A DNA stretch of 64,000 nt, from contig CBDCWI010000002.1 of the NCBI GenBank assembly GCA_965223325.1, positions 1,696,001 through 1,760,000 on the forward strand, read 5' to 3'. Origin of the DNA: Candidatus Multivoradales bacterium (GTDB taxonomy: Bacteria > Acidobacteriota > Thermoanaerobaculia > Multivoradales > Multivoraceae). Positions 19,087-21,764 of this stretch are shown here, in pieces (position 1 is the first letter of the stretch; each line of letters starts with the position of its first letter). The notes beneath the pieces were generated by a model. It saw only the letters and a program-made list of their open reading frames with translations. It was not told the DNA's origin and did no database searches. A program made the translations under genes and the position numbers.

Positions 19087-19333
19087 GACCGCAACGACCT
19101 GGCAGGAAGGTTCGTCGAGGAATCACGGCGCGACCCGTCCCACCACGTCCCTCCTCACCCGGGTCCTGCCCGCCAGGTAGGTGGTAGCCAGCTCCCATCA
19201 CCCACCGCAGATCCTGAAAGCCAAATCAGCGACAACGAAGCCAAGAATCCGCGGCGCGTGCAAGACCAACGAAGGCCGATGACGCAAGAGCAGGGCCAAG
19301 ACCTTCGAAGACAAAAACGCAACGGACCGCTTG

Positions 19334-21243
19334 GATACGCCGGGATAAACCGGCATGGAGAAAGGAATGAGAGAGTCCCACCCTCGAAGGGGTAGCGACC
19401 CAGAGGGTCCCCGAGTCATGCGCCGGCTCCCGCGAGGGTGCGGTGAAGCGTTGACAGGGGCACACACAGGCCGGGTATTGAGCCGCGAAATAAGAATTTG
19501 GGAGTGCCGACGCTGTCAAGCGAAGCGGAAGGCGAGACTCCGTAGCGCGCTATCGCGAGCTCTGCGGCGACTCCCCGCGGTCGTAGACCCTGTGCATGTG
19601 TGGAATCTCCATGCGCGAGAACCGGGAGATCCGCGATCTGGCCAGTTGGGTATCTGGTCCGCATCGGGAAGGCTAGAGGCCGTAAGCCGATGACGCACGG
19701 ATGGCGGAAGTCAGACAGGCCCGTAGTACCTGCGAAGTCGTCGAACAACGGTGGGAGACCAGCGGCGGAGGCGGTGGAGGGAAGGGGCCTGGCCAAGGGG
19801 AACACGGGCAAGCAAAACGCACCCCGGACACAGAGCCGGATGGAGAGTGCGAGCAATGCGCTGGGCCGTGTACGAGAAGCCGCCCGCAGGGGCAAGGAAG
19901 TGAAGTTCACAGCGCTTCTTCACCACATCACGGTCGAGCGACTCCGGAGCGCATTTGACGTGTTGCACCGAGACGCAGCGGCAGGAGTGGACGGAGTGTC
20001 ATGGAGCGAGTACGCAGAATCTTTGCTGAGCAATCTCGAGGACCTGCACTCTCGTGTCCACCGTGGGAGCTACCGGGCGAGTGCGACTCGTCGCGTCTAC
20101 ATCGAGAAATCGGATGGGCGGTTCCGACCGCTTGGCATCGCCACGTTGGAGGACAAGATCCTTCAGCGCGCCGTCGTCTCGGTGTTGGATGCGATCTACG
20201 AGGAAGACTTTCTCGGGTACTCATACGGATTCAGGCGAGGCCGCAGCCAGCACGATGCTTTGGATGCGCTATTCGTTGGAATCACAAAGCGGAAGGTGAA
20301 CTGGGTGCTCGACGCAGACATTCGTGGGTTCTTCGATGCCCTGGACCACGAGTGGCTGGTGAAGTTTCTCGAGCACCGTATCGGAGACCGTAGGATCCTT
20401 CGCCTCATCCAGAAATGGCTGAGGTCCGGAGTGATGGAAGACGGTAAGTGGCACGCGAGCACGCGGGGGACTCCTCAGGGGGCGACGATTTCGCCTCTCC
20501 TCGGGAACGTGTACCTGCACTACGTGCTCGATCTCTGGGTCCAGCAGTGGAGGAAACGCAACGCGCTTGGGGACATGATCTTCGTGCGCTACGCGGATGA
20601 CTTCATCGTTGGATTTGAGAGGCAGGAGGAGGCAGAACGATTCCTCGAGGAACTGAACCTGCGACTCCGTGACTTCTCGTTGGAGATCCAACCCGAGAAG
20701 ACGCGCCTGCTGGAGTTTGGCCGCTTTGCGGCCTACAACCGACGCGCGCGAGGTCTCGGGCGGCCGGAGACCTTCGAGTTTCTAGGCTTTACGCACTGCT
20801 GTGCGCAGTCTAGTCGAGGGAGGTTCTTGCTGAAGCGCATCACGAGCCGCCACCGAATCCGCAGGACACTGAAGGCTGTCGGTACGGCCCTTCTGGGACA
20901 CCGACACTCGCCGCTACCAGAGCAAGGTCTCTGGCTGGGATCCGTGGTGCGAGGCTTCAATGCCTACTACGGCGTACCCGGCAACTCAGCGGCGTTGAAC
21001 GCCTTTCGACAGGAGGTCATTCGGCACTGGATGCGCGCTCTGCGCCGACGCAGTGACAAAGACCGCACGTCCTGGAAACGGATGTGGGCCCTGGTGGCCC
21101 ACTACCTACCCAAAGCCCGAGTCCAACATCCCTGGCCTGATGAGCGACTTGTCGTCAATACCTGAGGCAGGAGCCCAGTGCATTAGCAGTGCACGCTGGG
21201 ATCTGTGCGGGGGGCGCCGGGCAACCGGCGCTCCTACCGCGAT
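19334..21243 (+). mobile_element. Group II intron (IIB-type), 1910 nt
   Basis: Boundaries fixed by the empty sites GGACCGCTTG^CGCCGCAAG in repeat copies 2 and 3; DV from 21171 with AGC triad; DVI with GCAA loop and bulged A21236; 3' end AT; EBS1 CAAGCG at 19517-19522. Confidence 0.95.
19690..21165 (+). CDS. ltrA: Group II intron reverse transcriptase/maturase, no endonuclease domain
   Basis: FTALLHH, RPLGI, SYGFR, DADIRGFFD, GTPQG, RYADD, FLGFT; start may be 19840. Confidence 0.95.
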   Translation: MTHGWRKSDRPVVPAKSSNNGGRPAAEAVEGRGLAKGNTGKQNAPRTQSRMESASNALGRVREAARRGKEVKFTALLHHITVERLRSAFDVLHRDAAAGVDGVSWSEYAESLLSNLEDLHSRVHRGSYRASATRRVYIEKSDGRFRPLGIATLEDKILQRAVVSVLDAIYEEDFLGYSYGFRRGRSQHDALDALFVGITKRKVNWVLDADIRGFFDALDHEWLVKFLEHRIGDRRILRLIQKWLRSGVMEDGKWHASTRGTPQGATISPLLGNVYLHYVLDLWVQQWRKRNALGDMIFVRYADDFIVGFERQEEAERFLEELNLRLRDFSLEIQPEKTRLLEFGRFAAYNRRARGLGRPETFEFLGFTHCCAQSSRGRFLLKRITSRHRIRRTLKAVGTALLGHRHSPLPEQGLWLGSVVRGFNAYYGVPGNSAALNAFRQEVIRHWMRALRRRSDKDRTSWKRMWALVAHYLPKARVQHPWPDERLVVNT

Positions 21244-21764
21244 CGCCGCAAGAGTCGTTCTCACCCGGATCCTGCCCGCCAGGTAGGTGGTAGCCAACTC
21301 CCATCACCCACCCCAGATCCTGAAAGCCAAATCAGCGACAACGAAGCCAAGAATCCGCGGCGTGCGCAAGACCACCGAAGGCCGATGACGCAAGAGCAGC
21401 GCCAAGACCTTCGAAGACAAGAAAAAACGCAACGGACCGCTTGCGCCGCAAGAGTCGCTCTCACCCGGATCCTGCCCGCCAGGTAGGTGGTAGCCAACTC
21501 CCATCACCCACCGCAGATCCTGAAAGCCAAATCAGCGACAACGAAGCCAAGAATCCGCGGCGTGCGCAAGACCACCGAAGGCCGATGACGCAAGAGCAGG
21601 GCCAAGACCTTCGAAGACAAAAAACGCAACGGACCGCTTGCGCCGCAAGAGTGATTCTAGCGTGACCTGTGGTAACGACTCCCCGCTATCGCCAGAAAGC
21701 AACCCCAACCGCACCGCTCACCAACCCAGGCACACCCCACCGGCGGCCGCTACCACAGGTCACG

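Follow-up and report, generated by a model that had tools for sequence, protein, structure and literature searches.

An endonuclease-less group II intron at one recurrent position of a structured tandem repeat family in a Candidatus Multivoradales genome

The DNA analysed here, referred to as the window, is a stretch of 64,000 nucleotides from a Candidatus Multivoradales bacterium (GenBank assembly GCA_965223325.1, contig CBDCWI010000002.1, positions 1,696,001 to 1,760,000) in which the first of three tandem repeat units is interrupted by a 1910-nt group II intron. This locus raises the question of whether the intron landed in the array by chance, or whether the repeat is the sequence that it regularly invades. 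Comparison of all copies of the intron and of the repeat in the 6.69 Mb genome, which is assembled in two contigs (C1 and C2; the window is C2:1696001-1760000), indicates that an active, endonuclease-less intron very probably homes into one position of a resident, seemingly species-specific repeat family.

Reading of window positions 18600-22300 showed three repeat units with a period of approximately 200 bp, and Tandem Repeats Finder reported a period of 200, 2.1 copies, 97% matches and a score of 770 for positions 21244-21652. When one unit was compared with the whole genome by BLAST, the two downstream units matched at 100% and 97%, and the 5′ part of unit 1 (19154-19333) matched at 94% (E 1.7e-76), in agreement with the original prediction, made from the sequence of the window, of three near-identical units. 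In unit 1, GGACCGCTTG (19324-19333) is followed by 1910 nt (19334-21243) and then by CGCCGCAAG from position 21244, and units 2 and 3 contain the uninterrupted sequence GGACCGCTTG|CGCCGCAAG at 21434-21452 and 21631-21649. The insert has unambiguous boundaries and lacks a target duplication, and the exact splitting of unit 1 and the intact sites of its two neighbours are as had been predicted. The features of the intron and its array are as follows (window coordinates unless a contig is named).

19154..19333, + strand: 5′ exon part of repeat unit 1, ending in intron-binding site 1 (IBS1), CGCTTG, at 19328-19333 (from reading, BLAST and nhmmer)
C2:1715227-1715333: nhmmer match for the 5′ part of unit 1, hidden Markov model (HMM) positions 3-110
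~19251-19260, + strand: 5′ strand of the long-range helix P1 in unit 1
19334..21243, + strand: group II intron, 1910 nt, with the 5′ end GAUACG and the 3′ end ...ACCGCGAU
19372..19590, + strand: domain I region matching RF02005 (Rfam, 180.6 bits)
19517..19522, + strand: exon-binding site 1 (EBS1), CAAGCG, a hairpin loop, complementary to the final six bases of the 5′ exon
19690..21165, + strand: reverse transcriptase/maturase, ATG at 19690 in frame with the open reading frame (ORF) 19600-21165; RVT_1, TIGR04416
21171..21203, + strand: domain V-like hairpin, GAGCCC...GGGAUC, with a 2-nt bulge (from the fold, z -3.9, read by eye)
21207..21240, + strand: domain VI-like helix, with the bulged A at 21236 being the 8th nt from the 3′ end (from the fold)
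21244..21443, + strand: rest of unit 1 (3′ exon), then unit 2, with the empty target site 21443|21444
21444..21655, + strand: core of unit 3, with the empty target site 21640|21641
21557-21566 and 21635-21646, + strand: the two P1 strands of unit 3

The insert is a group II intron whose protein has no endonuclease domain. The family RF02005 (group-II-D1D4-6) matches positions 19372-19590 over the full model (1-225) with 180.6 bits (E 9e-53; gathering score 49), in keeping with a domain I-IV ribozyme structure, and it is the sole Rfam match within the window, where nothing besides the intron reached its gathering score. The intron ORF (19600-21165), which probably starts at the ATG at 19690, scores 342.3 bits against TIGR04416 (group II intron reverse transcriptase/maturase; cut-off 300) and 133.7 bits against RVT_1, and Pfam reported RVT_1 only, with no endonuclease domain, in the 521-aa frame. 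Zimmerly and Semper 2015 (PMC4424553) describe the intron classes C, D, E and F as all lacking this domain; neither PDB relatives nor papers that mention RF02005 provided a basis for placing the intron in one of them. Folding of the last 78 nt of the intron (21166-21243) gave two hairpins, with a 2-nt bulge in the first and a bulged UA, which were assigned by eye to domains V and VI (D5 and D6).

A BLAST search of the genome found 14 full-length copies of the intron, 12 of them at 100% identity and two at 99.948% (one mismatch each), as well as a 239-nt 3′ fragment at 97% and one 36-nt match. The intron-encoded protein (IEP) has an open frame in each of the 14 full-length copies. In the contigs of an independent short-read run, word depth was ~218 over the intron relative to ~16 over its flanks, which fits approximately 14 copies. 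Comparison of the 60-nt flanks placed 13 of the 14 copies at ...CAGGGCG-N(~30)-CGGACCGCTTG|CGCC, and 13 of the 14 adjoin an nhmmer match to the repeat that ends at HMM position 110, the profile position at which all 13 interrupted units stop. The 239-nt fragment, a 5′-truncated copy, is followed by the same repeat 3′ exon, and all 13 repeat-borne copies have the orientation of the repeat. The flanks of the copies stem from different, diverged arrays, and the copies are therefore separate insertions rather than segmental duplicates. A chance insertion would have placed the other copies in unrelated sequence and left the repeat confined to the window; instead, 13 full copies and the truncated one occupy the same position of one repeat family, which has 178 matches in 58 loci, and the prediction of homing into a repeat is supported. 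Contigs from four sequencing runs contained no trustworthy intron-free joints or joints to alternative units, and the loose ends within them correspond to the other insertion sites of the genome.

The 14th copy lies outside the repeat family, at ...GAGCGCTTG|CAGTTGG (C2:2348230-2353139), in sense orientation near the 5′ end of a GNAT acetyltransferase gene, where the insertion site coincides with the start of the Acetyltransf_3 domain (98 bits). This site has positions -1 to -6 and +1 (GCGCTTG|C) and a few upstream bases in common with the repeat sites. In addition, one unit at C2:721858 on the minus strand (C2:721845-722002), whose head-to-head neighbour is occupied, has GGACCGCGAT|CGCCGC where GGACCGCTTG|CGCCGC would be expected; its 5′ exon up to ACCGC is joined to the last three bases of the intron, and IBS1 is destroyed. 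From its sequence, this unit looks like an intron loss by deletion between ACCGC of the exon and ACCGC near the 3′ end of the intron, and the footprint would no longer be invadable. At the truncated copy (C2:4242250-4242488, within the region C2:4240750-4243988), AT-rich sequence that differs from the rest of the genome stands in place of the 5′ part of the unit, and downstream the repeat 3′ exon and the terminal hairpin are normal.

Pairing between the EBS1 loop CAAGCG and CGCUUG involves 6 of 6 bp in all 14 copies, and CGCTTG together with the C at +1 is invariant at all 14 sites. Positions -7 to -11 (CGGAC) are also conserved among the occupied repeat sites. The original prediction had identified the loop at 19517-19522, in a CGCT/AGCG stem, as the exact complement of the bases preceding the intron, and the stem does align to a hairpin of RF02005. 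A palindrome, CTTGCG-C-CGCAAG, had also been pointed out at the cut; it is present there, but its 3′ half is missing from three of the 13 occupied repeat sites (CGCCTTTTTT, CGCCGTCCCC and CGCCGGACCA), and it is therefore not required for insertion. Further support for the pairing comes from the nearest relatives of the intron, three copies in a metagenome-assembled genome (MAG) of Solirubrobacterales with 58% amino-acid identity, which have the same 3′ end (..ACCGCGAU) and the 5′ end GUAGCG, and whose target is a DUF772 transposase gene. In these copies the loop is CCAGGU and the 5′ exons end in ACUUGG or AUCUGG, such that loop and exon have changed together, backing the assignment of EBS1 and IBS1.

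An IEP search of 60 related genomes found distant or partial relatives only, of which the best matched part of the protein at 59%, and there was no IEP relative at E<=1e-60 in a genome of the same genus. Its sequence relationships suggest that the intron arrived recently, with an EBS1 that fits the repeat. The same-genus genome does contain remnants of a related intron, namely a relic that has lost the ORF and a fragment consisting of D6 only, with 77-90% identity in parts (C2:1351800-1353600 and C3:2315400-2316100 of that genome); the EBS1 loop of the relic is different, and the flanks of the relic and the fragment are unrelated.

The repeat family comprises 178 nhmmer matches at E<=1e-3, including 101 that are almost complete, with a conserved core of ~150 nt and arrays of 2-7 units with periods of ~130-325 bp. 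A count of occupied versus empty sites gave 13 occupied and 143 uninterrupted units that cover the site, and the exact sequence CGCTTG|C is present in 113 of the latter. Occupancy is thus 13 of 156 site-bearing units and 13 of 58 loci, with 45 loci having no intron and 21 exact empty sites left in the occupied loci. The 7-mer CGCTTGC occurs 1797 times in the genome, 125 times as an empty site in repeat loci and 1672 times elsewhere, relative to 13 introns in repeat loci and one elsewhere. This amounts to a ~150-fold preference for the repeat, indicating that EBS1 alone is insufficient and that an extra determinant is needed.

None of the 13 occupied loci has more than one intron per array. This is not a significant rule, as random placement gives the same outcome with a probability of 0.165, and there is no preference for the first unit (five introns in first, two in middle, four in last and two in single units). 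At C1:819583-824145, two arrays lie head-to-head, with four units on the plus strand and five on the minus strand, and the minus-strand array has an intron in its first unit. A sub-family of units (for example at C2:4367075, 4105450, 3962448, 4065405, 4114050 and 2886983) has a C-run/G-run insert (CCCCC..GGGGG..GGGGG) directly after CGCCG, replacing the usual CAAGAGTGAC, and at least two such units are intron-occupied.

The core of the repeat contains a long-range helix, P1, formed by GCGGCGCGCG with CGC-UU-GCGCCGC. In the alignment of units 98.9% of P1 cells are paired, four of the 10 pairs have compensatory changes, and none of 500 shuffles reached the observed values; two cells are G-U and none is A-C. 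Further helices in the core were unsupported when assessed on the fixed alignment. The intron site lies between G and C of the P1 3′ strand, and insertion therefore splits P1, which ligation of the exons would restore. Rfam gave no match at E<=1 to the repeat on five array loci. A covariance model of the repeat (R1), scored on the best candidates from a first look at each genome, found nothing in 60 relatives or in 40 genomes belonging to the family, and had no match at E<=1 in the same-genus genome. A two-anchor pattern found 32 loci in metagenomes, all of which scored 19 bits or less with R1, relative to more than 120 bits for true members, and these are considered chance matches. In the same-genus genome the two outer genes of the window array abut, and an extra 176-aa ORF and an identity of ~70% prevent the boundaries of the repeat from being set. 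Judging from these searches, in which none of 64 related genomes and no metagenome yielded it, the repeat family is species-specific, and it looks undescribed.

The last unit of an array, and each singleton, ends in a hairpin of 15-18 bp with (C/G/T)TA(G/A) at its foot, CGTGG at its top and a loop of mostly 80-83 nt (in a few cases 62 or 5 nt). The hairpin and the flanking genes of the window array are as follows.

18556..19086, + strand: upstream ORF of 176 aa, co-oriented with the array and matching no Pfam family
21656..21769, + strand: terminal hairpin of the array, with 19-nt arms at 21656-21674 and 21751-21769 and a 76-nt loop
21765..24050, - strand: convergent gene, 761 aa, with a PilZ domain, whose TAG stop (21765-21767) lies within CTAG at the base of the hairpin 3′ arm

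The position of this stop codon is typical of the family. Thirty-nine terminal units were examined, of which 31 had a hairpin arm found by a search pattern and 28 had a long convergent ORF, and in 26 of these 28 the stop codon of the convergent ORF is exactly the CTA or TTA at the foot of the hairpin 3′ arm. One of the two exceptions is the window locus, where the pattern had misplaced the arm and direct reading gives the same arrangement. The 5′ arm foot co-varies with the stop tetranucleotide (GTAG/CTAC, TTAG/CTAA and GTAA/TTAC). The stop codons of the 28 ORFs are TAG in 26 cases and TAA in two, relative to 43% TAG among 1610 long ORFs with a high G+C content at third codon positions genome-wide; 43% is itself unusually high for a genome of 64% G+C. 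The anchored genes are unrelated and include those for IMP dehydrogenase (guaB), RecA (recA), an S9 peptidase, an autotransporter and the PilZ protein of the window locus. Where tested, the domain match runs to the end of the profile (for IMP dehydrogenase, and nearly so for the S9 peptidase), and the stops in question are taken to be the genes' own. The downstream gene is convergent in 38 of 48 loci by crude ORF calling. There was no related hairpin in the recA 3′ flanks of five relatives, which indicates that the element including its hairpin is an addition in this lineage.

The hairpin stems vary between loci and recur in subfamilies. By eye, the stems of distinct loci contain eight G-T/T-G, no A-C/C-A and three other mismatches, some of which may be accounted for by inheritance within subfamilies; a tally of the whole set of 55 hairpin rows, with outer positions included, gave 19 G-T/T-G versus 6 A-C/C-A. 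This wobble-pair asymmetry in the hairpins, together with that in P1, is the sole basis on which the functional form of the repeat is suggested to be RNA of the intron's strand.

The common position of the copies might be explained without repeated homing, if a single insertion had been carried around by duplication or transposition of the repeat element. The repeat family does multiply, forming tandem arrays and subfamilies with the same hairpin stem at different loci, and the absence of a second intron from any array would fit such a history. However, transport of this kind would leave similar flanks, whereas the copies are 99.95-100% identical within units that are diverged (70-87% in unit-to-unit BLAST, over parts only), 45 of the 58 loci are without an intron, and the copy in the GNAT gene shares just an IBS1-like 7-mer with the others, making this origin highly improbable. 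It is also conceivable that the repeats are DNA-level elements resembling repetitive extragenic palindromes (REPs) or miniature inverted-repeat transposable elements, which are not transcribed on this strand, so that the copies are unexpressed and unspliced dead ends from a burst of one or a few expressed donors. A sigma-70 scan around the window array yielded no promoter-like sites, and the niche of REP clusters, between convergent genes and in tandem reiteration, is one that this family shares (Di Nocera et al. 2013, PMC3733652). The mismatches in the hairpins (8 G-T/T-G versus 0 A-C/C-A) and in P1 (2 G-U, 0 A-C) instead point to RNA of the intron's strand as the object of selection, many arrays lie directly behind a co-oriented gene from which they could be read through, and none of the 13 repeat-borne copies departs from the repeat orientation; this alternative is regarded as unlikely.

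The extra determinant could be a structure, recognised in the manner of class C (IIC) introns, with a short EBS1 and a 5′ exon stem-loop (GGGCG...CGCCC, ~10 nt upstream of the site) and no EBS2-IBS2 pairing. The ribozyme is compact by reading, with ~330 nt preceding the ORF and 78 nt following it; an endonuclease domain is lacking, no EBS2 was located, many units have a predicted GC-rich hairpin immediately upstream of the site, and the preference over 1672 other CGCTTGC sites calls for an extra determinant. On the other hand, the site lies inside a helix strand and does not follow a terminator or attC motif, and D5 carries AGC at a place where CGC is frequent in IIC introns. Some units do not conserve the upstream hairpin, and the conservation of positions -7 to -11 at occupied sites could equally mean that the sequence is read by the protein or by an EBS2 that escaped detection. 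Recognition of this type is thus tentatively retained as a possibility, with the balance of evidence tilting away from it.

Several observations weigh against an active intron that homes into the repeat. Group II introns have the consensus ends 5′ GUGYG and 3′ AY; the 3′ end AU conforms, but the 5′ end is GAUACG, a departure from GUGYG that is common to the lineage, as the relatives have GUAGCG, and that is no argument against activity given the 14 near-identical copies. RF00029 (D5-D6) was not reported at E<=1 for the intron, D5 read by eye has G-A in place of the usual G-U opposite the triad G, and no convincing EBS2 or EBS3 could be placed in the intron. A replication-strand bias, as expected of endonuclease-less introns, is absent among the 14 copies, of which 8 are leading and 6 lagging by GC skew. 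Finally, a single genome underlies all of the results, and the identity of the copies could partly reflect assembly polishing. The cumulative GC skew on which the strands are based suggests that the two contigs form one chromosome in which contig 1 is inverted with respect to contig 2, with an origin near C2:3.5 Mb and a terminus near C2:0.35 Mb.

For the favoured explanation, active homing into the repeat, a course of events can be proposed that starts from what was observed directly: the copies and the site they share, the pairing of EBS1 with IBS1, and the repeat family with its helix P1. An endonuclease-less group II intron would have entered the lineage with an EBS1 loop, CAAGCG, that matches CGCUUG in the conserved repeat core, and would have spread by retrohoming to GGACCGCTTG|C on the P1 3′ strand, filling 13 of the ~156 site-bearing units, with one retrotransposition into a gene. 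Insertions would be cheap for the host because the repeats are intergenic and many-copied, and array duplication would keep supplying empty sites. The repeats would have to be transcribed on the intron's strand and rejoined by splicing, and features beyond EBS1 would provide specificity. The repeats may serve as the safe harbour envisaged in the original prediction, with splicing restoring the repeat RNA.

The strategy is known in outline from B.c.I1, IIC introns and RmInt1. B.c.I1 of the Bacillus cereus group, as portrayed by Tourasse and Kolsto 2008 (PMC2504315), likewise has no endonuclease domain, copies that are >99% identical, and site-specific homing into a conserved non-coding motif in the 3′ untranslated regions of unrelated genes, a targeting that its authors propose minimises harm to the host. 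B.c.I1 is described there as always located outside coding regions. Its targets are given in that paper (PMC2504315) as 0-4 candidates per strain, of unknown nature, in contrast to the present ~156 site-bearing units in 58 loci with tandem arrays, a site within a helix that covariation supports, and 13 insertions in a single genome. IIC introns share with the present intron the lack of an endonuclease domain, a small ribozyme and repeated, structured non-coding targets (intrinsic terminators and integron attC sites) with many sites per genome, but the review (PMC4424553) depicts them as reading a structural motif with little sequence requirement and inserting after the stem-loop. The intron described here uses a 6-bp EBS1-IBS1 pairing at one fixed position inside a conserved sequence, its site lies in the P1 3′ strand ~45 nt upstream of the terminal hairpin, and it is not established as a class C member. 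RmInt1 of Sinorhizobium meliloti is also reported to be endonuclease-less and to multiply by homing into a multi-copy element, ISRm2011-2, and the transposase-gene target of the Solirubrobacterales relatives is a parallel to it; the target of RmInt1 is a protein-coding insertion sequence, unlike the non-coding repeat with RNA-like covariation.

The novelty lies in what the intron targets, and on what scale: a structured, apparently species-specific repeat, amplified in tandem and with more than 140 uninterrupted sites, which is struck inside a helix strand. In the literature outside subscription journals, no bacterial group II intron was found described with a tandem non-coding repeat family as its home; apart from B.c.I1, the nearest record was a table entry in PMC1525189 listing two of nine P. 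putida intron copies next to REPs. Bacterial group II introns are present in three copies or fewer in most bacteria and rarely in more than 10, as cited in PMC8919778, and this genome shows a route to 14 near-identical copies with genes largely spared, by way of a many-copied, self-renewing non-coding target, a situation thought to favour intron proliferation. It also constitutes a natural experiment on the target choice of an endonuclease-less intron seemingly without an EBS2, comprising 13 occupied and 143 uninterrupted units (113 with the exact IBS1 and +1 base), one ectopic copy, one truncated copy and one apparent loss.

The repeat itself is a candidate new structured element, given the lack of an Rfam match, the helix covariation and the hairpins on stop codons of housekeeping genes. 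The preferred reading, with a modest lean towards it, is that it is a selfish or neutral transcribed mosaic repeat, the alternative being a functional multi-copy RNA. A more speculative proposal, possible but doubtful at present, is that the target is an undescribed, structured, RNA-level mobile or self-amplifying element, in which a ~150-nt core with a long-range helix is combined with a hairpin of the size of a REPIN. Such an element would dock exactly on native stop codons of unrelated genes, its foot behaving like a guide and target, and the intron would be a hyperparasite on its helix, with splicing keeping the RNA of the element functional so that both coexist.

The repeat resembles REPs, bacterial interspersed mosaic elements and REPINs, in that these are presented by Di Nocera et al. 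2013 (PMC3733652) as species-specific and extragenic, located mostly between convergent or co-directional genes near stop codons, reiterated in tandem together with flanking DNA, and having a (C/G)TAG tetranucleotide at the palindrome foot. In contrast, the unit is far larger, with a core of ~150 nt and a 15-18-bp stem with an ~81-nt loop, its tetranucleotide is base-paired and coincides with the stop codon of a gene, and its stems differ between loci. Membership among REPs or REPINs mobilised by REP-associated tyrosine transposases was considered in view of the (C/G)TAG foot, and was rejected because the stems are locus-specific and no Y1_Tnp ORF has a flanking hairpin pair: of 28 such ORFs, none is flanked by the paired hairpin motif, 22 have no match within 2 kb and six have a single loose match. 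The abundance of Y1 transposase-like ORFs in this genome (28 matches to PF01797, in ORFs of ~320-410 aa) is nevertheless a likeness to REP- and REPIN-bearing genomes. Many of these ORFs are clustered at C2:4455510-4486968 and C1:2126128-2143849, two regions that would lie near each other if the contigs were joined.

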